From assembly GCF_001677475.2 (NCBI RefSeq), contig NZ_CP015229.1: a stretch of DNA of 64,000 nucleotides, one strand, 5' to 3'. Numbering within the stretch: the first letter of the stretch is position 1; the number at the start of each line of letters is the position of its first letter. This stretch comes from Escherichia coli. GTDB taxonomy: Bacteria; Pseudomonadota; Gammaproteobacteria; Enterobacterales; Enterobacteriaceae. The notes under the pieces were generated by a model, which was not told the origin of the DNA, did not search any database, and saw nothing but the letters and a program-made list of their open reading frames with translations. The position numbers and the translations under genes were made by a program. Positions 25,396 to 54,738 of the stretch are shown one piece after another.

Positions 25396-25398
25396 CGT

Positions 25399-27865: not shown

Positions 27866-27934
27866 CGGAATGGTGCATCACCGGTACCTGCCATAGGGCT
27901 CACTACGTAGCCCAACCAATAATGCACCATTCCG
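27866..27934 (-). repeat. Nested inverted repeat (13-bp perfect arms enclosing an 18-bp palindrome)
   Basis: CGGAATGGTGCAT at 27866-27878 and its reverse complement at 27922-27934; inner GGGCTCACTACGTAGCCC. Confidence 0.6.
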
Positions 27935-28067
27935 GTATTGTAAAAAATCAGCACTGAGGCTAACCTGGCCTCAAAACATAGCCCGAAAACTGAGAGTTCC
28001 TAAAAAAAACAATCTGTCCTCACGTAATAAAAATACGCCAGTGCTGCAATACGCCTCTATCAAATGT

Positions 28068-28142
<75 letters not shown>

Positions 28143-28145
28143 ATA

Positions 28146-28221
<76 letters not shown>

Positions 28222-28335
28222 ATTGCTTCCTCGGATGTGAGATGAAATACATCTGAAATGTAATGCACCTTTCTCTCGAAGTAACCCAATAATACGGGAA
28301 GTTAACATTAATTCATTAGCTTATTGTGCAGTGAT

Positions 28336-28885
28336 TTAATTATCTGCCAACGTAACTATTTCACCCGCAGTATGCTCAAAACGTTCAGACTCAAGTTCAA
28401 CGCTTAACGCCATGCCCCCAAGTGCCAGCGCTGCTTTTATTATGGAGCCTGATCCCATGAAAAAGTCGGCAACCAAATCTCCCGGACGCAAACAGAATGC
28501 GCTCTGTTGCCGGGAAATACGCCCGCAGGCTTTCCTTGTTGCACCCGTTCCAGCGCCCGGACAGCTTCGCCCAGATAATGTGGTTCAGCACATTAAAGCG
28601 CTCACGCATCATGATTTCGATATCAGATGCCAGGCGATGACCACAGAACAGGTAAAGACTTCCGGCGGGTTTTAATACCCACCAGAACTGCGCCAGACAC
28701 TGATCCAGCCATTTCAGGTAATCATCGTCGCCCTTCCACTGGTTATCCCAGCCCTCGGGCTTCACTTTAAAGTATGGCGGGTCTGTGACTATCAGATCGA
28801 CAGAGTTTTCCGGTAAGGTCTGGATAAATTCCAGGAAATCAGCGTTGATTAACTCGCAGCTGGATATTTTTACAGTATTAGCCAT
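28336..28885 (-). pseudogene. DNA methyltransferase (DPPY, beta-class) interrupted by a 1-nt frameshift
   Basis: N-part has DLIVTDPPYF; SAM motif DFFMGSGS and C-terminus lie in another frame after a CCGGG run near 28480. Confidence 0.6.
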
Positions 28886-29035
28886 AGATCAATAAGCACT
28901 TCTCTGATAGGCTCATACCGCTTTTGCGCAAAGCAGATGGGCCTGAGGTTTGCTTGTGACCCCAACGCATGAGCAGATGGCTGGCAGGTGCCGCTAACAC
29001 CCACCAGCCGCCCATTACCACAAATTAAAAAGCCT

Positions 29036-29233
29036 TCACTGCGGAAGGCGTCTGTAACAACCGAACTGATAATCTGCCAGACCCGCCATAACAAGCTGAG
29101 TCAGTATTAACTGGCAGCGCTCGCGTGAAAGGTAAGTATTCTGCGCAATCTCCCCGACGGTCGCCGGTTCGGTGACGCTTAATTCATTAAACACCACTCT
29201 GGCGGTTTCGGTCATATCCTGCTGTTTTAGCAT
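29036..29233 (-). CDS. Small putative HTH protein (ORF extends to 29326)
   Basis: 65 aa from MLKQQDMTETARVVFNELSVTEPATVGEIAQNTYLSRERCQLIL... with SD AAGGGA. Confidence 0.4.
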   Translation of the reverse strand: MLKQQDMTETARVVFNELSVTEPATVGEIAQNTYLSRERCQLILTQLVMAGLADYQFGCYRRLPQ

Positions 29234-29521
29234 GTCTTTTTCCCTTTTCTGGTTAACGTGACATACCAATAACTCTTGTCGAAAAAGCCAGCAAGCAGAA
29301 AGACCAGTATTAATAACCACCAGCACATTTAACGCACTGCGCTACTTTGCGGGCACAAAAAACCCGCTCAGAGGAGGCGGGTTCAGGCTATGCAGTGAAA
29401 TAACCACTCTTAAAAGCATACATGATTTTTTACGTACGTAAATGCTTTGCCGTGCATATTTTTCATGCAAATGTCACATACTGCTATTTTCAGTGTTATA
29501 AATTTAAAGCCATAGAAAAAA

Positions 29522-30340
29522 TCAATTATGTTTTAAGAATGGATAGGTAAAGAATAACAAGTGACACAGATTCAGACCAAAATGGAAAAGGGTTGCCACC
29601 CACAAGCGCCCACTCCACATCCATGACAATCCATACACAACACCAGATAACGTGGCAAATAATACAAGTAAAGCACCACCTGAATAGTGATAAAAACCAA
29701 ACAACAAAGACGCCACAATTAACGCAACCAATGGAGACGTCACTTCTGATAGCCGTGATTGAATATACCCTCTAAATAATGACTCCTCTGCCAGAGACAC
29801 AAAAAACAAATTAGCCAATATAAACTCTGGCAACCACTCTGGAAAATGAATCTCTGGCTTTAACCCACCAAAAAAAACAGCCAAAAACAGGATAAGAGGA
29901 ACAGAGAGCAACAGAGCCGCCCATTTCCACAAAGACACTTCTGATTTCACTTCTTTTTTAAAAAAAGAAGCTGTACACAGGACTAACAAAAATGGCACCA
30001 GCGCTTTATCAAAATTAAAATACATTGTATAGGGAGTGCTTTGAGGTCCGACAGTGACAGACTTTAGCACTACAGGATTGTGAAACCCTGGCCATAAATG
30101 AAAAGATAATGCTATGGCTGATAAAACTATGCCAGCTTCATATATGGATTTAGCCCAGGCGTTATATTTCCAGTTGAACTTCAAAATAATAAAAAAAACG
30201 ATTGTAGCAACAAAAAACAACACCGGCCAATCAATAATATCATTAAGCACAGCCAGGACAACAGACACCGTCAACAATGAAAAAGCCACTACCTTATGCC
30301 AACTGAGAGTTGACAGTGACAGTGCTAACACAATCCACAT
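29522..30340 (-). CDS. CPBP-family intramembrane metalloprotease (Abi/CAAX protease domain)
   Basis: Multi-TM protein with the family motifs EESLFRGY (EExxxR), FGFYH and HFGLN; encoded in AT-rich DNA. Confidence 0.7.
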   Translation of the reverse strand: MWIVLALSLSTLSWHKVVAFSLLTVSVVLAVLNDIIDWPVLFFVATIVFFIILKFNWKYNAWAKSIYEAGIVLSAIALSFHLWPGFHNPVVLKSVTVGPQSTPYTMYFNFDKALVPFLLVLCTASFFKKEVKSEVSLWKWAALLLSVPLILFLAVFFGGLKPEIHFPEWLPEFILANLFFVSLAEESLFRGYIQSRLSEVTSPLVALIVASLLFGFYHYSGGALLVLFATLSGVVYGLSWMWSGRLWVATLFHFGLNLCHLLFFTYPFLKHN

Positions 30341-30494
30341 AAACACTCCTTTTATTTAATGATGAAGATTGATTATCAATATTTTCAATTCACCTGGCAA
30401 CATTTTGTTTACCTTCCATAAAATTCATGACCATCAAAAAAATAAACATATTAATTATAAACACAGAAAACATAACCCTCGTCACTATATATCC

Positions 30495-30869
30495 CTACCG
30501 CATATCCATATCTAACCGGACATTCAGAGCCATAAGCATTCCTTCAATAATACCTTCAGCTTTATAAAGTCTTTTACCAATAAGCCCATCAGAACATCTA
30601 TGCTTACGTGCAAGAGCCATAAATGTCATTCCACCTACGTAATAATCGACCAACAAATCGTGCAAATACTGATTATTCTTGTTTAATCGTGCCATACAGC
30701 CACAAATTATCATGGCGTCATCATCAGAACACTGAGGACGTGATTTCACTTTAGTTGGGATTAATCCTTTAAAACCAGCAGCTATCGAGGACCATGTTAC
30801 ATCTTCATGATTATTTGCTGCCCATGCTCCCCACCGCTCCATAACCAGCTGAATATCACGCAACATCAT
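30495..30869 (-). CDS. Q: Late antiterminator Q (QuuD-like)
   Basis: 124 aa, [34 protein letters not shown]...[16 protein letters not shown] matches the small Q family. Confidence 0.85.
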
Positions 30870-31227
30870 TACATCCTCTTATTACGAATATATTCACGCC
30901 CAGTCGCCCACCGCAAACAGGCAGACCATGCACAATATTGATTTCATCAAACTGCTCGTCGTCTATAAGCAGCCCCGCATGTGTCAGCGCATCCAGCAGT
31001 GCTTTCAGGATATTGTCCAGGTCACGACGGCGCTTATCCGGTGGATCTGCAATAATCTTTATCGCCAGCCTTCCGGACAGGTTTAATTTCAACCGCTGCT
31101 GGCGAACAATGAGCACCACATCACGGCGATAACGCTCACCGGCTTTTGATACAAAATATGTGCTGCCATAACGTCGCCAGTAGGTGTTCACCGTCGGCGG
31201 GTAAGGCAAAACAAACTCTATACGCAT
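30856..31227 (-). CDS. rusA: Holliday junction resolvase RusA
   Basis: 123 aa, catalytic region [30 protein letters not shown]. Confidence 0.85.
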
Positions 31228-31239
31228 CAGTAACCTCTT

Positions 31240-32289
31240 TTACCCAAGCACGCCGGTTGCAAAGGCGTGATCAAGAAAACGAAAAATTAAATCAATCTGG
31301 GAACCATGGTTTTCTTCGAACGCCAGCAGATCCGCATGAAGTTCGTTGTGATGCTCCCGGCACAGCGGTAGTGTAAAAATATCGTGGGCCTTTGTTCCCA
31401 TTCCGCCCTGACCATGACCAATCAGGTGATGGGGATCGTCGGCTGGCTTACCACAACACGCACACGGCTGTGTCTTTACCCAGCGCGTGTATTTCTCATT
31501 TACCCAGCGGCGACGTTTAGGTCGCCTCATGAACGATTCAGGAGACTCCGGATCAACGGCGATACTGACAACCGTTTTTTTCTGTGGTGGATTTTGTTGC
31601 TGGTGGACGTGAAGTGGCAGCGCAATATTTTTTGTGCGCTGCTTCAGTATGCTGGTGGCTGTCGGTTCTCCCGGTATGATGTCGCTCTCGCGGTACACCG
31701 AGCAAATTTTCTCTGCACGTAACCCCAGAGAACGACGTAATACTGTCTCCGGTAGCGCGTCCGCCACCTGATTGCAGACCGCCCACCAGGATAATTCAGC
31801 CAAAGATAATTCACGCTCCTGCGTACCGCTTATTGCGTGACCGATGACGTCAATCATCCATGCTGACAGGTTTTGATGAGCAAGTTGCTCGAGTGATTCG
31901 GATGTCTGGTCACGCAGCTGGTTGTCGCAGTGCCAGCACAACACCATTGCGCCGGTACCATAACGGTGAATGACGGTTTCGCTGTGATGATAATCGCCGT
32001 GTGGCCACTGGCAGGATTTAATATGGCGCAACAGCCAGTCAGACAATGCACCAGCACCACCAGCAGCACGAATCACCCGTGCGTTACTGAAAAACGGCAG
32101 CAATGTTTTGTCTTCCACCAGCGGCTGGCGAACGGCAGGAACGACCCCGGACGGCAGATTACGCATGCTTTTCGGTTCCGGCTCCACCAATACCCGGGTA
32201 TTGTGGAATACCGGCATGGATTCACGGCCCGGCTTAACGATCACCAGCCCGAGTTCCGGTACCAGAACAGGTCGAAGTAATACCCGCAC
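31240..32289 (-). CDS. DUF968-family protein (YdfU-like) with HNH-like Cys/His motif
   Basis: 349 aa; C-terminal CACCGKPADDPHHLIGHGQGGMGTKAHD...CREHHNELH. Confidence 0.7.
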   Translation of the reverse strand: MRVLLRPVLVPELGLVIVKPGRESMPVFHNTRVLVEPEPKSMRNLPSGVVPAVRQPLVEDKTLLPFFSNARVIRAAGGAGALSDWLLRHIKSCQWPHGDYHHSETVIHRYGTGAMVLCWHCDNQLRDQTSESLEQLAHQNLSAWMIDVIGHAISGTQERELSLAELSWWAVCNQVADALPETVLRRSLGLRAEKICSVYRESDIIPGEPTATSILKQRTKNIALPLHVHQQQNPPQKKTVVSIAVDPESPESFMRRPKRRRWVNEKYTRWVKTQPCACCGKPADDPHHLIGHGQGGMGTKAHDIFTLPLCREHHNELHADLLAFEENHGSQIDLIFRFLDHAFATGVLG

Positions 32290-32290
32290 G

Positions 32291-32569
32291 TTACCTCCAG
32301 ATGCGTTGCTGGAATGTGCGAGACGGACGCGGTGGGCGCTCGGAGTACGGCAGCCTGACGTAGATTATCCAGAGACGATAATCGAGGCTGAGGGATTTCT
32401 TAATCTCGTATCCACGCCTGCGGTAGTTCTGAATCAGCCATTTGGCCTGTTCTTCAGTGCATGGTTCATGCTGGAACCAGTCAGATTTGAATGTGAGAGA
32501 ACGCCGCCCGTGCCTGCTGGCAAAGACGGCTGAATTATCGGAATTGTGTAGTCTGGAATTTTGCGCCAT
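32291..32569 (-). CDS. Hypothetical nin-region protein
   Basis: 92-aa ORF abutting the DUF968 gene; no recognised motif. Confidence 0.35.
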   Translation of the reverse strand: MAQNSRLHNSDNSAVFASRHGRRSLTFKSDWFQHEPCTEEQAKWLIQNYRRRGYEIKKSLSLDYRLWIIYVRLPYSERPPRPSRTFQQRIWR

Positions 32570-32635
32570 CGGCTTTCTCCGCTGGCACAGTGTTACTCAA
32601 CAGGGGTTCAGCCCTGCGCTGAATTGTAGTTGAAT

Positions 32636-32899
32636 TCACTCATATTCAAAAGCAGAAAAACCAGCCTTAAGCTCAGCTTCTTTCAGAGACTGCAATGATG
32701 TGACAAATTCATTTTCACGCAAAATAAAACCATCCGTCACAAATCCATCCACAAAATAAATTAACGCAGCTCCACTCTTCCCTTGTTGAGACTGTAAACA
32801 TTTAATACGGCAGTGACTGACAATAGCGCCATTCTCAACGCGCGCAGTGTAGAGGCCATCTTCACTAAAAATTTCACGTAATTCTTCGATTTTCATCAA
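32636..32899 (-). CDS. Hypothetical protein
   Basis: 87-aa ORF downstream of hok. Confidence 0.4.
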   Translation of the reverse strand: MMKIEELREIFSEDGLYTARVENGAIVSHCRIKCLQSQQGKSGAALIYFVDGFVTDGFILRENEFVTSLQSLKEAELKAGFSAFEYE

Positions 32900-33050
32900 C
32901 AGAATCCTTCCAGATAAATAGCACTCCCCTGTTCGGGGTCCATCCCTCTTCTCCCTGCGCGCTAACTAAGTAATATGATTCTATTTACCCCAAACGCCCC
33001 CTCAAGAACCGCAACCAATGGAGTACACAAAAAGCTAATCAGCTACGCTA

Positions 33051-33078
33051 CGCAATAAAAAACCCGCCGAAGCGGGTT
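33051..33078 (-). terminator. Rho-independent terminator downstream of hok
   Basis: Minus strand AACCCGCUUCGGCGGGUU followed by UUUUUAUU. Confidence 0.65.
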
Positions 33079-33148
33079 AAGTGCGGGCGCGTTGAGGATG
33101 CCTGACACATCAGAGGTGGCGAGGGATTTCTCCCTCGCCAGGTCACTC

Positions 33149-33304
33149 TTACTCCTCAGATTCGTAAGCTGTGAAGACAGCGACCTCCGTCTGGCCGGTT
33201 CGGATTCGCACCTCGCAGAGGTCTTTCCTCGTTACCAGTGCCGTCACTATGACGGTTAAACAGATGACGATCAGGGCGATTAACATCGCCTTTTGCTGCT
33301 TCAT
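33149..33304 (-). CDS. hokD: Hok/Gef-family membrane toxin (HokD/RelF-like)
   Basis: MKQQKAMLIALIVICLTVIVTALVTRKDLCEVRIRTGQTEVAVFTAYESEE, near-identical to E. coli HokD; longer overlapping in-frame ORF is mok-like. Confidence 0.9.
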   Translation of the reverse strand: MKQQKAMLIALIVICLTVIVTALVTRKDLCEVRIRTGQTEVAVFTAYESEE

Positions 33305-33594
33305 AGCCTGCTTCTCCTTGCCTTTCGGCACGTAAGAGGCTAACCTACATGTGCAAAGCATGAAATTGGCCTCAGATTAATGTTAAGCGTCTTGCCGGAC
33401 GCGTAATGTTAACTGGGGCTTTTCTCTATCTGCCGTTGGTGTTCATGCCCGAGGCAGATAGCCTCAAGCACCCGCTGCAATTCTACTTAACTCTCCTTTT
33501 CCCGCAAACCGTTTTTATCCCCAGCGGCAAATCGAATACACCACCAGCGCCACCGCAAGTGCAATTCCTACCGTTGTGAATGCTTCAGGCCAGG

Positions 33595-34017
33595 TCATCG
33601 ATTCACCTCCTGCTCAATATTTTTAAGGTCATTTTCCGCATACAGTATTGCTGTCCTGGCTGCTCGTAACCGGGCTTTGGCATTTTTCTCTTCACGTTCA
33701 AGTTTTTCCACAGCTTCACGAAGAGCATCCCGCTTTGCATAGAGTGATTTAATCTCAGACACTATGTTTTCACCGTTTCTCGCACGGTCGAGAACAAGCT
33801 CGAACGGATCTAAAGCCAATCCGCATCGGTTACAGGTAATCGTACGATTCACTTCTGAAATTGTTGTACGGATATGCTGACAGCATTTTTGCTCGCCGCT
33901 TTTTCTGTCGGTTATCACAACGTTGAGAAGCCCTTCTTCCTCTGATTTTGGTTGCACAAGGGTGATAACATTGTCGATGTCATTTTTCATTAGCCCCCCA
34001 CTCTTGTGGTGATTCAT
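33595..34017 (-). CDS. Hypothetical Zn-ribbon plus coiled-coil protein
   Basis: 140 aa; CCQH...CNRCG Cys pairs and C-terminal coiled coil (LREAVEKLEREEKNAKARLRAAR); start overlaps upstream stop (ATGA). Confidence 0.45.
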   Translation of the reverse strand: MNHHKSGGLMKNDIDNVITLVQPKSEEEGLLNVVITDRKSGEQKCCQHIRTTISEVNRTITCNRCGLALDPFELVLDRARNGENIVSEIKSLYAKRDALREAVEKLEREEKNAKARLRAARTAILYAENDLKNIEQEVNR

Positions 34018-34190
34018 TCATCACCCCACTCATCACAATATGCTTCGACAGGTGTTTTTCCTGCTTCGTAGTCATCACGCCAGGCTTCAGCATCAACAGC
34101 ACTTCCACCACGTAACTCTGCATAGTCCATTAACAGTTCATGCCATTCTTCAAAACTGACGTTGTATTTAGTTGAACCAAAATCAGCCAT
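34014..34190 (-). CDS. Hypothetical small acidic protein (58 aa), not in ORF track
   Basis: MADFGSTKYNVSFEEWHELLMDYAELRGGSAVDAEAWRDDYEAGKTPVEAYCDEWGDE; coupled to flanking genes. Confidence 0.4.
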   Translation of the reverse strand: MADFGSTKYNVSFEEWHELLMDYAELRGGSAVDAEAWRDDYEAGKTPVEAYCDEWGDE

Positions 34191-34365
34191 TTTGTTCTTC
34201 CTCTTCGTCTTTTATTGCGTGATATGAGTAATTGCAGTAGTTAAAGAAAATTTCTTTTGCTTCATCATGAATTTCATCAGGTGTTGCGTCATCGCCCACT
34301 TCGAATACATCCTCAAAATCTCCACCAGCTATTCCCGTTTCAATAATTATTTTGAACTTTCGCAT
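34183..34365 (-). CDS. Hypothetical small acidic protein
   Basis: 60 aa from MRKFKIIIETGIAGGDFEDVFEV...; hairpin CCGCCCTTTCGGGCGG immediately 5' of start. Confidence 0.4.
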   Translation of the reverse strand: MRKFKIIIETGIAGGDFEDVFEVGDDATPDEIHDEAKEIFFNYCNYSYHAIKDEEEEQNG

Positions 34366-34509
34366 TTCACTACCGCCCTTTCGGGCGGCCTCCTGATGAT
34401 TTGAGAGTGCAAAAATCACTCCGGTTAAGGATTAAATTTTATTTACAGAACTGAATTTAATTATTCAGATATACGTATCTGTAACCCTACGAACCTACTC
34501 ACTGGATGC

Positions 34510-34983
34510 CTATTTCATAAAAATAATCCAGTGAGTTTTATCGTTTTTTCCTGTTCGTTGACCGATAACAGGTTTTCTGTCGGTCAGTGCCAATATCTGG
34601 CGAACAGGTATTTGCGTTTCATTCCATTTGAAAATCAGAACGCCGTATGGCTGCAACACACGAAAGGCTTCTTTAAATCCCTGCCGCAAATCATCACGCC
34701 AGGTATCTTTATTTAGCCGTCCATATTTCTTTCCCATCCAGGCGTTATCACCAACACGCTCAAGATGCGGAGGGTCGAATACAACCATCGAAAAAGATGC
34801 GTCTGCAAATGGTAGTGCACGAAAATCTGCTATCAGGTCAGGGCTAATTATCAGGCGTCGTCCATCACATAATGTGTGCTCTTCTTTTCTGATATCGCTA
34901 AATATCGCCCGGTCGTCATTCTTATCGAACCAGAACATACGACTACCACAGGACATATCAAGAATGGTTGCCGATTCACTCAC
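34510..34983 (-). CDS. Putative SAM-dependent (DNA) methyltransferase
   Basis: 157 aa; motif I-like ILDMSCGSRMFW and motif IV-like MVVFDPPH. Confidence 0.5.
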   Translation of the reverse strand: MSESATILDMSCGSRMFWFDKNDDRAIFSDIRKEEHTLCDGRRLIISPDLIADFRALPFADASFSMVVFDPPHLERVGDNAWMGKKYGRLNKDTWRDDLRQGFKEAFRVLQPYGVLIFKWNETQIPVRQILALTDRKPVIGQRTGKNDKTHWIIFMK

Positions 34984-35203
34984 TGTTTACCTCCTGCAAC
35001 GCTACCCGGTACGCCTTCTTTATCCACGCTGTACTGCCATATAACTTCGTCTTCATAAAAAACACCCCTGCACGGCTCGCCGATATCCCCGGACAGGCTA
35101 ACAGCACTGCATCCACCACACGGTTATGCTTCCGGAACTCCATTACAGTACTGCTGATAACCACCTGTCCCACCGGGCCGTAATCCTGATACAGGATTTT
35201 CAC
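34976..35203 (-). CDS. Hypothetical protein
   Basis: 75-aa ORF with start overlapping upstream stop (ATGA). Confidence 0.4.
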   Translation of the reverse strand: MKILYQDYGPVGQVVISSTVMEFRKHNRVVDAVLLACPGISASRAGVFFMKTKLYGSTAWIKKAYRVALQEVNSE

Positions 35204-35454
35204 GCAGACACCCTCCTGTCGAAATAAACGTAGTTATTCACTGTGCGCAGCGGCATTCCAAATTTTCTGGCGATTTCTCTCCTGGACACGCCACGCTGAT
35301 GCAATTGTCGCGTCAGCTCAATATCACTCTGCGGATATTTTGCTGACTGGTGATAATCACCCCGTAACATCATACTAATACCCAGTTCCCGCGCTTTCGT
35401 TCTGACCGCCGCCTCACTACGGCCAATCAGACTGCCGATGCTTTTTACCTTCAT
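35200..35454 (-). CDS. Small DNA-binding protein with two HTH-like segments
   Basis: 84 aa from MKVKSIGSLIGRSEAAVRTKARELGI...GVSRREIARKFGMPLRTVNNYV. Confidence 0.45.
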   Translation of the reverse strand: MKVKSIGSLIGRSEAAVRTKARELGISMMLRGDYHQSAKYPQSDIELTRQLHQRGVSRREIARKFGMPLRTVNNYVYFDRRVSA

Positions 35455-35510
35455 TGTTCCCGCGCACTGCCGAAGAATAAGGATTTCAGCCCGCACCCAG
35501 CCACGCCATC

Positions 35511-36272
35511 TCACTTCACATCCTCTCTGGAACAATTCATCTGCCGTATAATATCCCGGTACTTGTTCAGCTCCCGCAGCGCGGCGCAGACACGCTCCCA
35601 CTTCTGGACATGGCTTTTCGCCCGACGCAATTCGCGGTTTGCTATATGCAGCGATGGTAAAATCAGGTCATCCCCTTGCGTTTCGGTGAGCGATGGTAAC
35701 GACTGCACCATGTCCGCCACAGTTTCTGTTTTAATATCTTCCTGTGTTGCAGCTTCCTGTACCGGTAACGCAACACCGGCTGGCTGAGGAAAGGCTTTAC
35801 CATCGGTTTCCGCTACCGATGCGGCTTTCAGCTCTGCTGGTAAATTATCTCCCGGCATGCAGTAGCGAAATTTACCGTTCTGGTTTACGCGTGCCAGCCG
35901 CCCCGTTGCGGTTACTACTGCCAGCGTGGAAGCAACCTTGCGAGTGCTGACACAGAACTTACCCGCCAGTTCCTCACACGTTTTAGCTCCCTCCTGACCG
36001 ATAAACTCAATCATCATGTCAGCGGTAACTTTTCGTTCGACCGCCCTGGTCAGCACATCCGGTACTTCAGATTGTGCTGGCTGCTCTTCGGTTACCCCGG
36101 ATTCACCTTCGCCAGCCAGAAACCAGGTGTGACCCGTTTTATCAACGACGCCATTTCTTTTCAGTTCCCACAGCTCGTTCAGCACTTCTTCACGACTGAT
36201 ATCAAGTCGCGCAGCCAGTTCTGTCGACGTGGCTTTCCCCATTGCTTTCAGTGCGTCAAAAACAGTCTCCAT
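35511..36272 (-). CDS. Hypothetical phage protein (DUF1627-like), N-terminal winged-helix
   Basis: 253 aa from [43 protein letters not shown]. Confidence 0.5.
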
Positions 36273-36306
36273 TAAAATTTCCTCCCGGTAAAAATCACTT
36301 CTCAAC

Positions 36307-36972
36307 TCAAACAAAACCAGCCGTTTTCCGGCGTTCATACTCCTGTTTCAGCAACTCAATTGGCGTTGGTCCCGACGGGCGTTTGGGTGCCGCCAGTTGT
36401 CGCCGGACTGGCGGAATGCTCAGGCCATTACCAACATGCTTTGCCCATTTCGTCAGTTGCCGTTCTGCAAGCCGTTTTAACTCCCCTTCGGTCATCTGGC
36501 GCTCAATCCCCTTTGAACGCATCTCGAGGCAAATGTGATACAGCACAGGCTGAGACCACGGGTACTTATCACTTCCGTCGTATCGCCAGGACTCATTGCG
36601 CCAGCGGCGGTACTCCTCCATCACAGCATCCACCGTCAGACCGAATGGATTGGCTCCGCTTTCCGAAATCAGTGCCACAAACTCAGCCAGGTCCGGAGGC
36701 CATGTTTCACCCGCCCGGCAGCGGTCCATGCACTGGCGGCAGACCTGCCGGATTTGCTGCTCAGTCATCGCGCCAATCTGTGCAATCCAGAGCTTCGAAG
36801 GTGCGGCCCCGTTCTTCCGGGGCCAGCGGTTCGAATAAACCTCCCCCATGAGTTCCCACAGCTTCCAGGCCGTTTCCGTCGCTGATAAATCCGTTTTCAC
36901 GTTCCCACTGCTCACGTGCTGCCCGAATTTCCTGAACTGCCCGTGATGCGGTGCCACCTGGTGCTGCTGCAT
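36307..36972 (-). CDS. Replication protein P-like helicase loader (true start probably internal, ~36768)
   Basis: C-terminal half resembles lambda P ([16 protein letters not shown] ; [14 protein letters not shown]...IPPV); 5' part overlaps the O-like gene. Confidence 0.6.
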
Positions 36973-37801
36973 GGTTTGCCCCCTTGCTGACTGGTTTAAC
37001 CTGTGCCCTGACGTGATTTACGTGACGGGCGAATTTCTGCTCCCACTGAACCTGCGTGAAAACTTTACCCTCCTCAGTCCAGTAATCCCTGAATGCGGCA
37101 AGTTCAGCAGGTGTAAATTCCGGCTCTGGCAGAGCCATCCCCCACAACGCAGCCCGTCGTCGAAAATCCCGTGACGGATACCAGCTATCGGTCATCGGAA
37201 ATTTTCCGATGGGTTCGTTCACGCCGTCCAGGAGCACGGGGGGGGTTGTCTGTAGCGACAAAACTCCCCGCTCACTGGTCGGAGCACTCTCACGTGCGTT
37301 ATGTGTGGGGTTTAGATCTTTGGGTTCCTTTGGGTTCCGTGATCCGTTTTTGGGTGTCTTTGATGGAAAATTTGGGTGTCTTTGGTTATTTTCCATGCAG
37401 CAAAGAGTTCCGTTTTTGGGGCTGTTTTGTGCTGAAACATAACCGTTTTCGGTACTGTTTTTATTAACAGCACCAATTTTACCCACCTTTAAAGACACCC
37501 GTTTTTGGGTGTATTCAGGCTCGGCAACACTTTCTTCTACACCGATAAGTCGGTACACCACAATTTGCTTTGTTCTGCCTTTTCTCTCACCGGTATCAAT
37601 AATTAACCCAATCTCCATCAGGTGTCGTAAGCTGTCCTGCACAGTCTTTTTGTTCAGTTCCGTTACTTCTGCCAGTGCAGATACAGACGGGTATGCACAC
37701 AAATCGGCACCGCACATATCAGCAAGCCAGGTCAATACTGACTTACTGGATGAACTGCCGGTTTTCACCTTTTTAGCCCACCGTAGTGCATCGATACTCA
37801 T
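36761..37801 (-). CDS. Replication initiator (lambda O-like), contains ori iterons
   Basis: 346 aa from MSIDALRWAKKVKTGSSSSKSVLTWLADMCGADLCAYPSVSALAEV (HTH); internal repeated KTPKNG / PKEPKD encoded by iterons. Confidence 0.65.
   Translation of the reverse strand: MSIDALRWAKKVKTGSSSSKSVLTWLADMCGADLCAYPSVSALAEVTELNKKTVQDSLRHLMEIGLIIDTGERKGRTKQIVVYRLIGVEESVAEPEYTQKRVSLKVGKIGAVNKNSTENGYVSAQNSPKNGTLCCMENNQRHPNFPSKTPKNGSRNPKEPKDLNPTHNARESAPTSERGVLSLQTTPPVLLDGVNEPIGKFPMTDSWYPSRDFRRRAALWGMALPEPEFTPAELAAFRDYWTEEGKVFTQVQWEQKFARHVNHVRAQVKPVSKGANHAAAPGGTASRAVQEIRAAREQWERENGFISDGNGLEAVGTHGGGLFEPLAPEERGRTFEALDCTDWRDD
37320..37530 (-). repeat. Putative replication origin iterons inside O-like gene
   Basis: Repeats of TTTGGGTGTCTTTG / TTTGGGTTCC / CGTTTTTGGG in direct and inverted orientation. 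Confidence 0.55.
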
Positions 37802-38324
37802 ACGAACCTCTGGCAGACATTTGTTTATCTGCAAAGTAATAATGATATTGCTGACGATACGCATGCTTGAAAGCAATAGCTTTTTCTATAAGCTCGTCAG
37901 TCTCACGTTCCACAACAGATGGATCCGCAAAAAGCAGCCCGGACTCCACCACATCGCCATATTCTTTGTTTAACCCGGCGATCATGTACGTAATGCTTTT
38001 TCCGTCAGTAATTTCACAATACAACCTGAAATCGCTGATCCGGATAGCCTCCATAATTGCCGGAATCAGCGCCGTGAATTTTTCCCGCTTATCCCTGGTG
38101 TCGATAGCTTTCCAGCGTTCGAATATCTTCACCCGGTTAACGCCCAGCGCCCGTTGATCAACCTCGCCATCATTAAACGTGACGCGTTGAACATCGATGT
38201 TCGGGCGTTCTTTCAGAGCCCAGAATGCTTCCGTGATTAAAATAGTCGCCTGCTCCTGTGTCATTCCTGGTCGGCATACCCAGGCATCCAGAGCCTCACA
38301 AACCTGTTCAGGGGTGATTTTCAT
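37773..38324 (-). CDS. YdaT-like regulatory protein (cII-position gene)
   Basis: 183 aa starting MKITPEQVCEALDAW..., located between the cro-like gene and O. Confidence 0.45.
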   Translation of the reverse strand: MKITPEQVCEALDAWVCRPGMTQEQATILITEAFWALKERPNIDVQRVTFNDGEVDQRALGVNRVKIFERWKAIDTRDKREKFTALIPAIMEAIRISDFRLYCEITDGKSITYMIAGLNKEYGDVVESGLLFADPSVVERETDELIEKAIAFKHAYRQQYHYYFADKQMSARGSYEYRCTTVG

Positions 38325-38535
38325 TGTTCAACCGCCCCGCCCGCTTTGCCTTACGATATTCGTCATAAACTTTGGGGTCGTACTGAAGTTCCCCGCCGGA
38401 TGCCTCTTGCAGGCGCATCGCGCGACCTTCAGGAACCAGTTCCCCCCATGCAGCAATGCTTGCCAGCCTAACTCCTGCGGCATTGGCAAGCTTTGTTTTG
38501 CTGCCAAAAAACGCTATAGCATCAATTTTCAACAT
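38308..38535 (-). CDS. dicC: Cro-like repressor (DicC-like)
   Basis: 75 aa, MLKIDAIAFFGSKTKLANAAGVRLASIAAWGELVPEGRAMRLQEASGGELQYDPKVY, P22 Cro/DicC-type. Confidence 0.75.
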   Translation of the reverse strand: MLKIDAIAFFGSKTKLANAAGVRLASIAAWGELVPEGRAMRLQEASGGELQYDPKVYDEYRKAKRAGRLNNENHP

Positions 38536-38611
38536 ATCGAGTTCCTTAGATTTTCCTAAGGAAACTAGATCGTAGAGAAACCTAAGTCAATAAAAATTAG
38601 AATTCCCTAAT
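38536..38611 (+). promoter_or_regulatory. Divergent promoter/operator region between dicC and dicA
   Basis: Palindrome TTCCTTAG-ATTTTC-CTAAGGAA (38542-38563) plus further ACCTAAG half-sites. Confidence 0.6.
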
Positions 38612-39019
38612 ATGAAAAACGAAACCTTCGGTGCTCGCCTCTTACATAGGCGTAAAAAATTAAAACTGTCTCAGGCCGCATTAGGTAAGCTGGTCAAAGT
38701 GGCTCACGTAACAATTTCTCAATGGGAAAGAGATGAAACACAGCCGGCGGGGAAAAGATTATTCGCACTGAGCCAAGCGCTTCAGTGCTCACCGACTTGG
38801 CTTCTTTTTGGGGATGAAGATAAACAACCAGGCGAACCGATCCCGGATAATCAGCCAGCCATTCTGACAGAAGATCAAAAAGAGTTACTTCAACTGTTCG
38901 ACGCACTGCCTGAGTCAGAGCAAAAGGCCCTGTTGTCAGAGATGCGTGCTCGAGTTGAAAATTTCAACAAACTTTTTGAAGAACTACTCAAAGCTCGCAA
39001 AAGAAGCGCAAACAAATAA
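38612..39019 (+). CDS. dicA: Prophage repressor DicA-like (XRE HTH, no LexA-type peptidase domain)
   Basis: 135 aa; LSQAALGKLVKVAHVTISQWERDETQP...CSPTWLLFGDEDKQP...NFNKLFEELLKARKR resembles DicA. Confidence 0.8.
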   Translation: MKNETFGARLLHRRKKLKLSQAALGKLVKVAHVTISQWERDETQPAGKRLFALSQALQCSPTWLLFGDEDKQPGEPIPDNQPAILTEDQKELLQLFDALPESEQKALLSEMRARVENFNKLFEELLKARKRSANK

Positions 39020-39079
39020 CCCCCTTTTTTCTCCACACCCTGTAATAAAAAGCACAAAATTTCAAACAATTGTGTTTTT

Positions 39080-39150
39080 TACATCAAAAAACTTAGGTTT
39101 TTCTACATAAACAGCTTGACCACATACCTTAGGTTATTCTAAATTTCATT
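39080..39150 (+). promoter_or_regulatory. Second operator cluster (OL-like) downstream of dicA
   Basis: Repeated CTTAGG/CCTAAG half-sites (AAACTTAGGTTTTTC ... ATACCTTAGGTTATTC) like those between dicC and dicA. Confidence 0.45.
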
Positions 39151-40746: not shown

Positions 40747-40799
40747 ATTCTGGTGACATTTGGCGGTATCAGTTTTACTCCGTGACTGCTCTGCCGCCC
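40747..40799 (+). ncRNA. dicF: DicF small RNA
   Basis: TTCTGGTGACATTTGGCGGTATCAGTTTTACTCCGTGACTGCTCTGCCGCCC followed by TTTTT, matches DicF sRNA upstream of dicB. Confidence 0.8.
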
Positions 40800-40983
40800 T
40801 TTTTAAAAGTGAATTTTGTGATGCGGTGAATGCGGCTCAGCGCACGCGGAACAGTTAAATCGGTAAAGAGGTCATTTGCTGAGTAACGGGAATGCTCTGT
40901 ATCCGGCGTTAATTGTTAACTGGTTAACGTCACCTGGAGGCACCAGGCACTGCATCACAAAATTCATTGTTGAGGACGCGATA

Positions 40984-41172
40984 ATGGAAAAGTTATCATG
41001 CAATGCCAGTACGTCTGAACTTCGTTTCGAAATTGGCGTTATCACTGGAGAAAAAACATTTATTGAAGACGCCATTAAGCAGAGAAAACTCGAGCAGGAC
41101 CTGTTAAATGAAGTATGCATTCCTTCAATGCTGGCTCGTCTGGACCTGCTGCAAAAAGGATATAAACAATGA
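40984..41172 (+). CDS. dicB: Cell-division inhibitor DicB
   Basis: 62 aa MEKLSCNASTSELRFEIGVITGEKTFIEDAIKQRKLEQDLLNEVCIPSMLARLDLLQKGYKQ. Confidence 0.8.
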   Translation: MEKLSCNASTSELRFEIGVITGEKTFIEDAIKQRKLEQDLLNEVCIPSMLARLDLLQKGYKQ

Positions 41173-41360
41173 ATACAACATTTGCACTCGTTCTGACAGT
41201 TTATCTTGTTTCCGGCGAATCTCTTGAGCTGGTGACTGGCTTATACGGTTCAATGAAAGAATGCATGGCTGCCGCAGCAGAACAAAAAATTCCCGGTAAC
41301 TGTTATCCGGTAGATAAAGCTACTCACACTAATAATAACGAAATACCGGCGGGACTTTAA
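41169..41360 (+). CDS. ydfD: YdfD-like small protein with N-terminal hydrophobic segment
   Basis: 63 aa MNTTFALVLTVYLVSGESLEL...; overlaps dicB stop. Confidence 0.55.
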   Translation: MNTTFALVLTVYLVSGESLELVTGLYGSMKECMAAAAEQKIPGNCYPVDKATHTNNNEIPAGL

Positions 41361-41453
41361 AACAGCACCGAAATAAACATCCGGTTTCATTTTTATATGC
41401 CAGCAATGGCAGGGATTTGTTCACCCTTAAATCTGTAATGAGGTTAAAACAAA

Positions 41454-43925
41454 ATGAATAAAGTCTTTATTTGCGCAGCTATTCCGGACGAACAGGCAAT
41501 AAAGGAAGAAGGTGCAGTCGCTGTGGCCTCTGCCATTGAAGCCGGTGACGAGCGCCGCGCCCGTGCCAAATTTACCTGGCAATTCCTGGAGCAATATCCG
41601 GCTGCTCAGGACTGCGCTTATAAATTTCTTGTCTGTGAGGATAAACCCGGCATGCCCCGCCCTGCCATTGACTCCTGGGATACCGAATATATGCAGGAAA
41701 ACCGCTGGGATGAGGAATGCGCTTCCTTTGTTCCGGTCGAACCAGAATCCGATCCGATGAACGTCAATTTTGACAAGCTGTCCCCTGAAGTACAGAACGC
41801 GGTCCTGATTAAGTTCGGTACATGTGAAAACATCACCGTTGATATGGCGATTGACGCTCAGGAATTACTGCAGGAAGACGTGGCTACCTTTGACGGGCAT
41901 ATCGTTGAAGCACTGATGAAAACGCCTGAAATTAACGCTATGTATCCGGAACGCAAACTGTTCGCTATCGGATGGGTTAAACACAAATGTAAGCCGGGTA
42001 CCAAATGGACCGAAATTCAGGCTGAATTACGTAACTGGAAAAAACGGCAGGACGCAGAGCGCAAAGAGACTGGAAAATACACGTCTGTTGTTGATCTTGC
42101 CCGCGCCAGAGTCAACCGACATAGCACTGAAAACTCAGCAGAAAAAATCAATTCTGTCACTGCCGCCATTCGTCGCGAATACAAGCAGACCTGGAAAACA
42201 CTGGATAAAGAACTGGCCTATGCTCTCTGGCCTGGTGACATTGATGTCCGGAACATTGACGGCAGCATCCATAGATGGGCAAAAAATGAAGTTATCGACA
42301 AGGATCGCGAAGACTGGAAACGCATCTCCGCATCAATGCGCAAACAGCCTGATGCGATTCGCTACAGCCGTCAGACGATTTTTGGCCTTGTTCGTGAACG
42401 TCCGGTCGACATTCACAAAGACCCCGTGGCACTGAATAAATACATCACTGAATACCTTGCGACAAAGGGCGTGTTTGAAGATGAAGAAGAAGATCAGAGC
42501 GTTGTTGATGTTCTCCAGTCGTCAGCATCACAAACTGATGCAGTGGAAACTGAAGTACCTGATACCCAAAAAAATGAAAGCGCGCTGGAAGATGAATCAT
42601 CTGTAGAGCGTGAGGGGCCGTTCTACTTCCTCTTCAGCGATAAGGATGGAGAAAAATACGGTCGCGCAAACAAACTTTCAGGTCTGAATAAGGCGCTCGC
42701 TGCAGGGGCTACTGAAATCACGAAAGAAGAATATTTTGCTCGAAAAAACGGTACATACTCAGGTTCACAACAAAATACTGGTGCATCTGACACGACCGCA
42801 CAACCAGAGCCGGTAAAAGTTACTGCTGACGAAGTGAACAAAATTATGCAGGCAGCCAATATCAGCCTGCCTGACGCCAGTCAGTTGCTCGCTGCATCAC
42901 GTGGTGAATTTGTTGCAGGGATTAGCGACCCGAATGATCTGAAATGGATTAAAGGGATCCAGACCCGCGATTCTATGAACCAAAACCAGCAAGAAACGGA
43001 ACAGAACGACCAGAAAGCGGAACAAAGCAGCCCAAATGCGCAACAAAACGAGCCAGAAACGAAACAATCCGAACCAGTAGTGCAACAGGAACCGGAAAAA
43101 GTCTGCACCGCCTGCGGTCAGAGCGGTGGCGGCAACTGCCCCGATTGTGGCGCGGTCATGGGCAACGCAACATACCAGGAAACATTCGATGAAGAGAATC
43201 AGGTTGAAGCTCAGGAGAATGATCCGGAGGAAATGGAAGGCGCTGAACATCCACACAAGGAGAACACTGGCGGCAATCAGCATCACGCCAGCGATAGTGA
43301 AACTGGCGAGACGGCAGATCCCTTAATTACGGTGAACAGTCATCACGTTATCACATCCACCAGCAGGACGTGTGACCATCTAATGATCGACCTTGAAGCC
43401 ATGGGAATAAATCCTGATGCCCCGATTATCTCAATAGGTGCAATATTTTTCGATCCGCAAACCGGAGATATGGGACCGGAATTTAGTAAGACTGTCGATC
43501 TGGAAACTGCTGGCGGAGTCATTGATCGGGACGCCATTAAATGGTGGCTTAAGCAATCACGCGAAGCGCAATCTGCCATTATGACCGATGAAATCCCGTT
43601 AGATGATGCACTGTTACAATTGCGGGAATTTATCGACGAAAACTCCGGTGAATTTTTTGTTCAGGTCTGGGGAAATGGAGCAAACTTCGACAACACGATT
43701 TTGCGCCGTTCATACGAACGGCAGGGGATCCCCTGCCCGTGGCGTTACTACAACGATCGCGATGTGCGCACAATCGTTGAGCTGGGGAAAGCCATAGACT
43801 TCGATGCCAGAACTGCTATCCCATTCGAAGGTGAGCGCCATAATGCACTTGATGACGCTCGTTACCAGGCAAAATACGTTTCAGCTATCTGGCAAAAACT
43901 GATCCCGAGTCAGGCTGATTTTTAA
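41454..43925 (+). CDS. Large prophage exonuclease (YdfE/RecE-position) with Zn-ribbon and C-terminal DEDDh 3'-5' exonuclease domain
   Basis: 823 aa; CTACGQSGGGNCPDCG ribbon; C-terminal DnaQ-like motifs (MIDLEAMG..., HNALDDARY). Confidence 0.65.
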   Translation: MNKVFICAAIPDEQAIKEEGAVAVASAIEAGDERRARAKFTWQFLEQYPAAQDCAYKFLVCEDKPGMPRPAIDSWDTEYMQENRWDEECASFVPVEPESDPMNVNFDKLSPEVQNAVLIKFGTCENITVDMAIDAQELLQEDVATFDGHIVEALMKTPEINAMYPERKLFAIGWVKHKCKPGTKWTEIQAELRNWKKRQDAERKETGKYTSVVDLARARVNRHSTENSAEKINSVTAAIRREYKQTWKTLDKELAYALWPGDIDVRNIDGSIHRWAKNEVIDKDREDWKRISASMRKQPDAIRYSRQTIFGLVRERPVDIHKDPVALNKYITEYLATKGVFEDEEEDQSVVDVLQSSASQTDAVETEVPDTQKNESALEDESSVEREGPFYFLFSDKDGEKYGRANKLSGLNKALAAGATEITKEEYFARKNGTYSGSQQNTGASDTTAQPEPVKVTADEVNKIMQAANISLPDASQLLAASRGEFVAGISDPNDLKWIKGIQTRDSMNQNQQETEQNDQKAEQSSPNAQQNEPETKQSEPVVQQEPEKVCTACGQSGGGNCPDCGAVMGNATYQETFDEENQVEAQENDPEEMEGAEHPHKENTGGNQHHASDSETGETADPLITVNSHHVITSTSRTCDHLMIDLEAMGINPDAPIISIGAIFFDPQTGDMGPEFSKTVDLETAGGVIDRDAIKWWLKQSREAQSAIMTDEIPLDDALLQLREFIDENSGEFFVQVWGNGANFDNTILRRSYERQGIPCPWRYYNDRDVRTIVELGKAIDFDARTAIPFEGERHNALDDARYQAKYVSAIWQKLIPSQADF

Positions 43926-43977: not shown

Positions 43978-44187
43978 ATGGCTATGAGCAGCTTATTTTT
44001 AACCGAAGATGAATTGCTAATATTAACGGGCTGCAAATATGCAAGCCACCAGCGAAAATGGTTAATGGAAAACGGGCTTCCGTTCTATACCAATCGTAGT
44101 GGCAAACCGATTGTCAGCCGGGATCTATTTACCTGCAATAAAACTTTACCACCACGCGAGGTAGAGCCGAATTTTGGTGCAATCTGA
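43978..44187 (+). CDS. xis: Excisionase-like protein
   Basis: 69-aa ORF immediately upstream of and overlapping integrase start. Confidence 0.6.
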   Translation: MAMSSLFLTEDELLILTGCKYASHQRKWLMENGLPFYTNRSGKPIVSRDLFTCNKTLPPREVEPNFGAI

Positions 44188-45212
44188 TGGGAAGACGAAG
44201 GAAAAATCCTGAACACGAAAAATTACCTCCAAATGTATACCCAAATAAATATAGTTATGTATGGAAACCAACATCCAGAGAATCTGTCACACTAACCGCC
44301 ATCAAGGATGGTTTAGCTGCTTTATGGAAAAAGTATGAGGAAACTGTAAATAATCGCGATCGCGCAATGACATTCGGTCGCTTGTGGGAAAAATTCCTCG
44401 CCAGCGCCTATTACAGTGACCTCAGTCCAAGAACACAAAAAGATTATCTGCAACATCAAAAAAAGTTGCTTGCCGTATTCGGTAAGGTGCCGGCAGATTC
44501 CATAAAACCAGAACACATCCGTCGATACATGGACAAGAGAGGGGAACAGAGTAAAACGCAAGCCAACCATGAAAAAAGCAGTATGTCCCGCGTTTACAAT
44601 TGGGGGTATGAGCGAGGGTACGTGAAGGGTAACCCATGTGCAGGTGTAAGTAAATTCAAGGCCAAAAACCGCGAACGATATGTAACCGACAAAGAATACC
44701 AGGCAGTATTAAGTGTTGCACCTCTTCCTGTTTTTATCGCAATGGAAATTGCCTATCTGTGTGCAGCGAGGGTTTCCGATGTGTTATCACTGAAATGGGA
44801 GCAGATTGGAAACGACGGGATCTTTATCCAGCAAGGGAAAACAGGGAAAAAACAGATAAAAGCATGGAGTCCACGATTACAGGCGGCGATCGAAAAAGCA
44901 AAACAGTTACCAACATCTGCCTATGTAATCAGCAATCAATATGGCAACCGATATATGTACAAAGGTTTTAACGAAATGTGGGTAGAAGCAAGAAATCACG
45001 CAGGCAAAATTTCAGGTATTTTAACCGACTTCACCTTTCATGATCTGAAGGCGAAAGGAATTTCAGACTATGAAGGAAGCAGCCGGGATAAGCAACTTTT
45101 CTCTGGTCACAAAACCGAAGGGCAAGTGCTAATCTATGACAGAAAGGTTAAAGTTTCACCAACACTTGATGTCCCGTTACCTGATAATATTCCAAGAAAA
45201 TATTCCAAGTAA
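44187..45212 (+). CDS. int: Tyrosine integrase
   Basis: 341 aa; C-terminal catalytic region with R...HDLKAKG...GHKTEGQVLIY; 3' end 43 nt from serU. Confidence 0.9.
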   Translation: MGRRRKNPEHEKLPPNVYPNKYSYVWKPTSRESVTLTAIKDGLAALWKKYEETVNNRDRAMTFGRLWEKFLASAYYSDLSPRTQKDYLQHQKKLLAVFGKVPADSIKPEHIRRYMDKRGEQSKTQANHEKSSMSRVYNWGYERGYVKGNPCAGVSKFKAKNRERYVTDKEYQAVLSVAPLPVFIAMEIAYLCAARVSDVLSLKWEQIGNDGIFIQQGKTGKKQIKAWSPRLQAAIEKAKQLPTSAYVISNQYGNRYMYKGFNEMWVEARNHAGKISGILTDFTFHDLKAKGISDYEGSSRDKQLFSGHKTEGQVLIYDRKVKVSPTLDVPLPDNIPRKYSK

Positions 45213-45254
45213 TTCCAAGTGTGATTTTTGTCACTGACTTAATGATGTGTAAGT

Positions 45255-45344
45255 GATTGAATTTTGGCGGAGAGAGGGGGATTTGAACCCCCGGTGGAGT
45301 TGCCCCCACTCCGGTTTTCGAGACCGGTCCGTTCAGCCGCTCCG
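45255..45344 (-). tRNA. serU: tRNA-Ser (anticodon CGA), serU; prophage attachment site
   Basis: 90-nt tRNA with long variable arm, anticodon loop CUCGAAA, GGTTCAAATCC T-arm, CCA end. Confidence 0.9.
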
Positions 45345-45447
45345 GCATCTCTCCGTTCAGATGGTTGCCATGATGCCAGGAAATTTGGCATTTTAACAGT
45401 CCCTGTCCGTGCAATTTTGTTCAAGTGACGAGTTTGCGAGCAAAACG

Positions 45448-46345: not shown

Positions 46346-46421
46346 TCCTCTGTAGTTCAGTCGGTAGAACGGCGGACTGTTAATCCGTATGTCACTGGTT
46401 CGAGTCCAGTCAGAGGAGCCA
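46346..46421 (+). tRNA. asnT: tRNA-Asn (GUU)
   Basis: TCCTCTGTAGTTCAGTCGGTAGAACGGCGGACTGTTAATCCGT...GGTTCGAGTCC...CCA. Confidence 0.95.
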
Positions 46422-46734
46422 AATTCTAAAAATTCGCTTTTTTAGCGCAATGTCACTGACCTTAGTTGAACATTGTTTTTTAACGGATAGCGGTTTTTTA
46501 ACATCTTAAGCGCCCTCGACCTTTATGGTTGAGGGCGTTTTGCTATGAACGCCATCACCATTTTCCCCTCGATTATAAAACTTGAGTTATTCAGTAGTCT
46601 CCCCTCTTGCAACTCACACCCAAAACTGCCTAACGAAAAGTTATTAATTTTCAATCATATTGCTATCAGGATTTACATTTTTTCGCTGTGCTAGAAAGGG
46701 CGCATTTATGTTAGCTCGTTCAGGGAAGGTCAGC

Positions 46735-54738
<8,004 letters not shown>

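Follow-up and report, generated by a model that had tools for sequence, protein, structure and literature searches.

Lambdoid phages and prophages provide the described systems with which the element analyzed here can be compared most closely. In phage lambda, xis precedes int and the two genes overlap, and the attachment region carries three tandem arm repeats next to int (P'1-3) and two more in the other arm (P1/P2). Lambda integrates at its own att site, not in serU, and ydfJ, argU, and ttcA are the respective sites of Qin, DLP12, and Rac, three cryptic prophages of K-12. The serU gene, which encodes tRNA-Ser(CGA), is nevertheless an established target: the literature names it among the prophage sites of STEC O121:H19 and O145:H28 and, for LEE-negative STEC, as a site used by Stx phages (PMC8767318, PMC7067040, PMC8065619). 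A GenBank record bears the name "Escherichia phage SerU-LTIIb," and a junction between an integrase gene and serU, 99.7% identical at the nucleotide level over 2.8 kb to the one described below, is annotated in RefSeq genomes. Two relatives are particularly informative for the present comparison, namely, the serU prophage of GB089 (NZ_CP013663.1) and KpF5 (OR327748.1), a complete genome of a Klebsiella phage from wastewater.

We analyzed a stretch of 64,000 nucleotides from Escherichia coli, hereinafter the window. Almost certainly, positions 369 to 45326 of the window represent a lambdoid prophage, at least 44.9 kb in length, whose own tyrosine integrase of the lambda type inserted it in serU on the chromosome (Table 1). 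The genes follow the lambdoid order (int, xis, recombination, immunity, replication, Q, lysis, head, and tail), and over most of its length, the element shows 87-92% nucleotide identity to sequenced lambdoid phages. An earlier note on this sequence had proposed a mosaic lambdoid prophage at serU; the differing affinities of the tail, head, Q, and immunity modules and the alignments of the flanks and the core bear this out. Both the kind of element and its site are already known, and only this particular combination of modules was not found elsewhere.

Table 1. Features of the 64-kb window and the evidence on which each is based (aa, amino acid; nt, nucleotide)
Feature	Position	Strand	Basis
Right end of ISEc10 (IS21 family; 3' end of istB and terminal repeat)	1-368	+	ISEc10 istB copies
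Tail fibre assembly protein, DUF4376	481-1068	-	PHROG tail fibre family; GB089 annotation
Side tail fibre	1083-3179	-	PHROG tail fibre family; GB089 annotation
Lambda-like tail module	3239-15290	-	tblastn with lambda proteins; PHROGs
lom-like OMP	3239-3838	-	47% to lambda Lom
J, 1233 aa	3905-7606	-	92% to lambda J
H tape measure, 873 aa	10014-12635	-	83% to lambda H
V	13499-14248	-	75% to lambda V
Z	14667-15290	-	53% to lambda Z
Non-lambda head/packaging module, including connector/decoration genes	15293-22256	-	PHROG 133, 21, 15, 141
Fused head-maturation protease/major capsid	ORF listed 15980-18196	-	PHROG
Portal, 500 aa	17949-19451	-	PHROG
Large terminase (TerL), 707 aa	19660-21783	-	PHROG
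Small terminase	21780-22256	-	PHROG
Lysis cassette	22967-25695	-	Lambda, Qin, PHROG, GB089 annotation
Rz	22967-23470	-	57% to lambda Rz
Lysozyme	23768-24301	-	83% nt to Qin rrrQ
Holin	within 25399-25695	-	PHROG 9876
Cargo between Q and lysis, including a TerB-like gene	25787-30346	mixed	GB089 annotation (TerB-like gene)
IraM-like anti-adaptor	25787-26122	+	NCBIfam IraM, 164 bits vs cut-off 121
STnc100 sRNA	26167-26342	-	Rfam
tRNA-Gly(UCC)	28068-28142	-	ARAGORN
tRNA-Thr(UGU)	28146-28221	-	ARAGORN
CPBP protease	29522-30346	-	GB089 annotation
Q antiterminator	30495-30869	-	Pfam; 84% aa to DLP12 QuuD
RusA	30856-31227	-	Pfam; 40% aa to DLP12 RusA
YdfU/DUF968	31240-32289	-	Pfam; 85% aa to Qin YdfU
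hok/sok	33299-33473	-	Rfam sok, 113 bits
P-like	36307-36972	-	Pfam
DnaT-domain O-like	36761-37876	-	Pfam
YdaT-like	37773-38324	-	Pfam
DicC-like Cro	38308-38535	-	84% aa to Qin
DicA-like repressor	38612-39019	+	62% aa to Qin
Early-left operon	40748-43925	+	Rfam; Qin nt identity; Pfam
DicF sRNA	40748-40799	+	Rfam, 77 bits vs 48
dicB-like gene	about 40984-41172	+	84% nt to Qin dicF-dicB-ydfD-ydfE
Exonuclease, 823 aa	41454-43925	+	Pfam Rv2179c-like exonuclease domain, E 9e-66
DUF4224 protein, 69 aa, candidate excisionase	43978-44187	+	Pfam DUF4224, E 2e-15; PHROG 1266 "excisionase," E 7e-22
Lambda-family tyrosine integrase, 341 aa, with N-terminal arm-binding region	44187-45212	+	Pfam; alignment with lambda Int
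Three direct ATTCCAAG repeats across the int stop codon, candidate P' arm-type sites	45189-45219 (starts 45189, 45202, 45212)	+
att core, 62 nt, tRNA CCA end through anticodon stem (phage-derived copy)	45265-45326	-	Alignments
serU, tRNA-Ser(CGA), intact but chimeric	45265-45354	-	ARAGORN; Rfam; alignments

In K-12 MG1655, the gene order at this site is zinT, yodB, serU, mtfA, asnT, and yeeJ, with no insert. To the right of position 45265, the window carries serU, mtfA, asnT, and yeeJ in the K-12 order and with 98.6% identity to K-12, whereas leftward of serU, the similarity ends. The tRNA-Ser(CGA) gene is full length and not truncated, with a score of 57 bits against the Rfam tRNA model (gathering score 29), and is also recovered by ARAGORN, in agreement with the earlier description of an intact tRNA rather than a partial pseudo-copy. 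The CCA end of the tRNA lies at 45265 and the int stop codon TAA at 45210-45212, so that the spacer is 52 nt long (45213-45264), not 43 nt as first reported. The two genes converge, with the tRNA's 3' end facing the prophage; this is the proposed tRNA-3'-end integration geometry, and the three-way and five-way alignments described below match the pattern of site-specific integration. Empty sites, which had been suggested as a check, are common: apart from K-12, a 701-nt probe across the uninserted site identified an uninterrupted copy in 3855 of the 5426 complete E. coli genomes, and with a 2.8-kb probe, the junction of int with serU and mtfA was detected in 1092 of these genomes.

To delineate the attachment core, we aligned the window with the empty site of K-12 and with the far end of the GB089 serU prophage. 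In GB089, the yodB-side flank leads into 62 nt of the 3' part of the tRNA and then into phage DNA; at the window junction, phage DNA leads into the same 62 nt, which is followed by the remainder of the tRNA and mtfA. A five-way alignment showed that this block is exactly what the window attL, the GB089 attL and attR, the K-12 attB, and the KpF5 attP have in common and that the sequences on either side diverge as expected for BOP', POB', BOB', and POP'. Thus, in contrast to lambda with its own att site, the target here is a tRNA gene with a 62-nt block of identity. The alignments place the integrase-proximal boundary of the prophage at 45326/45327. No second copy of the core was detected in the 64 kb when we searched for the tRNA 3' end with up to three mismatches and for direct repeats. 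The core is seen as a direct repeat at both ends of the element in GB089; the window covers the integrase-proximal junction only.

Two positions within the block vary. The window and the GB089 attL have G at 45296 and C at 45307, whereas K-12 and the GB089 attR have A and T. In the variable arm of the tRNA, the two positions form a base pair, which changed from A-U to G-C, and pairing was kept. As judged from these alignments, the serU gene of the window is a chimera that consists of 28 chromosomal nucleotides at the 5' end and 62 phage-derived nucleotides at the 3' end. Considering that attL and attR differ at these positions within a single GB089 lysogen, the crossover would fall past the second difference but still within the block, and strand exchange most likely occurred in the anticodon stem-loop, at core positions 44-62 (window 45308-45326). 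The placement depends on two polymorphic positions, and these differences could in principle postdate the integration, either as new changes or through conversion.

These observations suggest a conventional integration scheme. The attP of the phage would carry the 3' part of tRNA-Ser(CGA), from the anticodon stem to the CCA end, as a 62-nt copy, and recombination would swap the 3' part of the tRNA such that a complete tRNA is rebuilt beside int (attL), while the displaced native 3' fragment would stay at the far end (attR). Like lambda Int, the integrase probably is of the heterobivalent type: its N-terminal domain would bind the ATTCCAAG arm repeats, of which three lie in the P' arm (45189-45219) and two in the P arm, and the neighboring DUF4224 protein would serve as the excisionase.

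The integrase matched the Pfam families Phage_integrase (PF00589; 43.7 bits vs the cut-off of 27.1) and PF22022 (29.4 vs 27), which cover the catalytic and central domains. A phmmer comparison with lambda Int (PDB 1z1b) gave a full-length alignment starting from residue 1 of both proteins (E 1.6e-12), with conserved MGRRR and LPPN.Y motifs in the N-terminal region but only 23% amino acid identity. No significant similarity to IntR of Rac was detected. Five of the six catalytic residues (R, K, H, K, H, and Y) are canonical compared with lambda R212, K235, H308, R311, H333, and Y342; the exception is the Arg-II position, where the arginine of lambda (R311) is replaced by lysine (TFHDLKAKGIS). 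In an alignment of the integrase with 120 homologs (55-98% identical) from Escherichia, Salmonella, Klebsiella, Citrobacter, Dickeya, Pectobacterium, Sodalis, Hamiltonella, and Gilliamella, the Arg-II column contained lysine in all 121 sequences.

Gibb et al. found arginine at the Arg-II position in 99.1% and lysine in 0.5% of tyrosine recombinases and showed that Cre R292K is active yet accumulates the covalent intermediate (PMC2943603). Because lysine at Arg-II is a known rare variant and Cre R292K is active, this substitution does not argue against membership in the tyrosine recombinase family. The variant class being known, its fixation in a widespread and evidently active clade is a modest curiosity; the activity of the integrase is suggested by this distribution. 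Given the accumulation of covalent intermediates in the Cre mutant, the conserved lysine might, rather than being a neutral variant, characterize a subclass of lambda-type integrases that is distinct in mechanism, with a shifted balance of cleavage and ligation, although we consider this a speculative and rather improbable reading.

The three ATTCCAAG repeats at the end of int are the only copies of this sequence in the window, and the only two copies in 50 kb of GB089 lie in the other arm, at +40 (inverted) and +105 (direct) beyond the core. KpF5 encodes an integrase with 60% identity to that of the window and the same HDLKAKGIS motif, and its int is followed at the corresponding place by the 62-nt core of tRNA-Ser, with the A/T variant of the variable arm. 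Since KpF5 is a free phage in which a related integrase gene is followed by the same core, this arrangement represents a genuine attP. KpF5 differs from the window element in host genus and in its arm repeat, which is a different 8-mer, TTTTCTCA, present in five copies compared with 0.18 expected by chance. The start-to-start spacing of the repeats near int is 13 and 10 nt in both elements, and in the other arm of KpF5, the core is followed by an inverted copy after 40 nt and by a direct copy after 103 nt. Conserved geometry combined with changed sequence and a diverged integrase in which the lambda-like N-terminal region is retained is how heterobivalent arm-type sites would look, and the arrangement resembles P'1-3 and P1/P2 of lambda; the repeats are accordingly described here as candidate sites.

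The last base of the DUF4224 gene (44187) is the first base of the int open reading frame, in line with the overlapping xis-int order of lambda. The putative role of this protein as an excisionase is assigned on the basis of the PHROG annotation and gene position only. It showed no similarity to XisR of Rac and no significant sequence match to solved structures, and a tblastn search (E ≤ 1e-5) detected no match to lambda Xis in the prophage; unlike lambda with its Xis, the element has a DUF4224 protein as its putative excisionase.

We also searched the phage collection with a synthetic attP assembled from the P' arm of the window, the core, and the P arm of GB089. No record in the collection contained a contiguous attP with the E. 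coli-type integrase. Two records, vB_EcoS-689R5 and vB_EcoM-606R7, carry the integrase but match the attL junction of the window and represent prophage segments with flanking host DNA; the former contains mtfA and asnT, which identifies it as a prophage excerpt rather than an attP. The records ev099, mEp332, and PhiR70_1 match the core and the P arm; in ev099, the match is an attR-type junction with host flank, located beside a true lambda int.

The immunity region resembles that of Qin. The Qin-type layout, with divergent dicC and dicA followed by ydfA/B/C, DicF RNA, and dicB, is present, and nucleotide identity to Qin is 77% across dicC-ydfB and 84% across dicF-ydfE; together with the DicA-like (62%) and DicC-like (84%) proteins and the DicF RNA, this upholds the earlier proposal of a Qin-like immunity region. 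Further similarity extends to other prophages: the early half of the element is 91.6% identical at the nucleotide level to PPompW prophages of EHEC, and Rac shares a lom segment (97-98% nucleotide identity) and a partial match to recE.

The same note had assigned the Q/RusA region to the DLP12 type. This holds for Q, which is close to QuuD of DLP12 and unrelated to YdfT of Qin, but not for RusA, which, at 40% identity, belongs to the same Pfam family as the DLP12 protein without being close to it. The Q-proximal ydfU and hok/sok genes are Qin-like rather than DLP12-like, judging from the similarity of YdfU and from the 83% nucleotide identity of the ydfU-rem-hokD segment to Qin.

The structural genes are mosaic, as had been claimed. 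The tail proteins from Z to J are 53-98% identical to their lambda homologs, with U at 55%, G at 67%, M at 94%, L at 98%, K at 96%, and I at 98% (tblastn), in addition to those listed in Table 1; a T gene also belongs to the tail module and is listed between H and G. The tail fibre assembly protein and the side tail fibre matched PHROG families with E values of 5e-82 and 2e-178, respectively. The head is not lambda-like: TerL and the portal show only 24% and 21% amino acid identity to lambda A and B, and no matches to lambda nu1, C, D, and E were detected in the prophage by tblastn. The true start of the fused protease/capsid gene is probably downstream of the listed TTG because the PHROG match begins at residue 78. 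The structural half is related to VT1-Sakai, CP-1639, and long-tailed Stx phages, which are 87-88% identical at the nucleotide level over approximately 75% of positions 369-23000 and share the terminase, portal, and protease/scaffold head genes with the window but integrate at a different site. Genes for stx were not observed in the window.

The comparison with GB089 shows how these modules are distributed between two prophages at one site. GB089 shares with the window the integrase, the int-serU junction, and the 62-nt core, including the G/C variant at attL, and is 99.4% identical over 14.9 kb (23615-38511) that include early genes, Q, and lysis. Despite this similarity of the flanks, its repressor is only 65% identical to that of the window. 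Its tail is 80-93% identical, and its head is of the lambda type, with an S49 protease, a decoration protein, and a separate major capsid protein, as opposed to the fused protease/capsid of the window. The two elements present a clear case of module exchange at a single site. A further difference is the ISEc10 sequence at the distal end of the window copy. Here, annotated ISEc10 istB copies match positions 1-365/368 with 99.7-100% identity, and homology to prophages of other genomes sets in at 369, no more than 112 nt past the tail fibre assembly gene. ISEc10 interrupts the distal end of the prophage, and the far att junction lies outside the window. Neither an identical prophage nor the ISEc10/prophage junction was found in any of the 5426 complete E. 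coli genomes, and the junction was also absent from the collection of species-representative genomes.

The interrupted distal end bears on whether the element is still competent. It could be a defective (cryptic) remnant, fixed as a genomic island, in which ISEc10 would have removed or separated the distal end and attR; this differs from the prophage reading in present-day competence only, not in origin. The start of the window inside ISEc10, so close to the tail fibre assembly gene, and the lack of an attR copy within the window are compatible with such decay, which appears to be common at serU, given that int and the portal gene of GB089, the closest relative, are annotated as frameshifted. 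Conversely, the long open frames of int, the exonuclease, TerL, the portal, H, and J (341, 823, 707, 500, 873, and 1233 aa, respectively) speak for preservation, and after a plain IS insertion, an intact attR would be expected approximately 2.5 kb farther to the left. On balance, a defective remnant appears a serious but unlikely alternative.

Two other explanations concern the origin itself, and we regard both as extremely improbable. The tRNA next to int might be a phage-borne or duplicate copy, with the prophage lying beside serU rather than in it; its 3' 62 nt differ twice from the K-12 gene, and lambdoid phages do carry tRNA genes, two of which are found in this element at 28068-28221. 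The 5' 28 nt and the sequence beyond, however, match K-12 unbroken through mtfA, asnT, and yeeJ, the similarity to phages ends exactly at core position 62, and GB089 keeps the displaced native 3' fragment at its other end, all of which point to insertion into the gene. Equally hard to sustain is the notion that serU is occupied by an integrative element other than a phage, for example, a satellite or a genomic island: elements of this kind have been reported at serU in O121:H19 lineage L3 (PMC8767318), but the full lambdoid set of structural, lysis, regulatory, and replication genes is contiguous with int here, and the identity to sequenced lambdoid phages noted above covers most of the length. 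We therefore retain the interpretation of the element as a lambdoid prophage inserted in serU.

As such, the serU prophage is ordinary and has little meaning beyond annotation. It is a further instance of lambdoid prophages of E. coli exchanging modules, sharing its site and early region with GB089 but having another head and repressor. Its attachment anatomy, that is, the 62-nt core, the probable crossover in the anticodon loop, and the co-varying candidate arm repeats, could aid automated calling of the boundaries of prophages at serU, and the conserved lysine at Arg-II is a small lead for enzymologists. The serU gene of this strain is a phage/host chimera in which base pairing is kept.

The prophage integrase (window 44187-45212) carries, in the motif TFHDLKAKGIS, a lysine at the position of the catalytic Arg311 of lambda Int. 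This lysine is present in all 121 of the 121 aligned members of the integrase family, which come from many Enterobacterales genera. According to published statistics, only 0.5% of tyrosine recombinases contain lysine at the Arg311-equivalent position, and the R292K variant of Cre is ligation-defective (PMC2943603).

Candidate arm-type integrase sites were identified by sequence as ATTCCAAG in E. coli, including the related serU lysogen GB089, and as the counterpart TTTTCTCA in the free Klebsiella phage KpF5. The five positions of these putative sites relative to the 62-nt serU core are the same for ATTCCAAG and TTTTCTCA, and the 13/10-nt spacing of the repeats is identical between E. coli and KpF5.

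The free lambda-like phage ev099 (NC_049953.1) has in its b-region a junction of the attR type from a serU prophage (L007 2239-2699), in which the yodB-side host flank, represented by 278 nt, is joined to the 62-nt serU core and the P arm. A true lambda int gene adjoins this junction. The junction looks like a fossil, left either by imprecise excision or by recombination with a serU prophage. The same stretch of core and P arm is also matched by mEp332 and PhiR70_1, with the match covering that stretch.

The prophage additionally bears three regulatory RNAs, DicF, sok, and STnc100, as well as tRNA genes and an anti-adaptor gene (see the table).

Coordinates of features in the window and in related loci
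Feature	Location	Strand	Remark
DicF regulatory RNA	window 40748-40799	+	77 bits
sok of hok/sok locus, regulatory RNA	window 33299-33473	-	113 bits
STnc100 regulatory RNA	window 26167-26342	-	94 bits
tRNA genes Gly(UCC) and Thr(UGU)	window 28068-28221	-	downstream of Q
IraM-like anti-adaptor gene	window 25787-26122	+	adjoins holin
Candidate arm-type sites, ATTCCAAG	window 45189-45219		int-side arm
Candidate arm-type sites, ATTCCAAG	GB089 (L001) 7902-7909, 7967-7974		
Candidate arm-type sites, TTTTCTCA	KpF5 (L009) 1545-1575, 1723-1730, 1786-1793		
Repressor segment diverged from GB089	window 38511-39109		
asnT	window 46346-46421		
yeeJ-like adhesin ORF	window 46660-54738		long, open; 2692 aa as listed

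Beyond serU, the yeeJ-like adhesin ORF directly follows asnT, and thus, asnT in the window is free of an inserted island. The ORF is open here; the yeeJ homologue of GB089 is annotated as frameshifted. At the distal end, the IS21-family element ISEc10 is inserted 112 nt past the tail fibre assembly gene, and window positions 1-368 are its right end (istB); this ISEc10/prophage junction is absent from all complete E. coli genomes of the collection searched.

In the immunity region, the DicA-like repressors of the window and of the GB089 serU prophage share only 65% identity, whereas the flanking DNA is 99.4% identical on the left and 97.8% on the right. Diverged repressors between such closely similar flanks point to a recent exchange of the immunity cassette.
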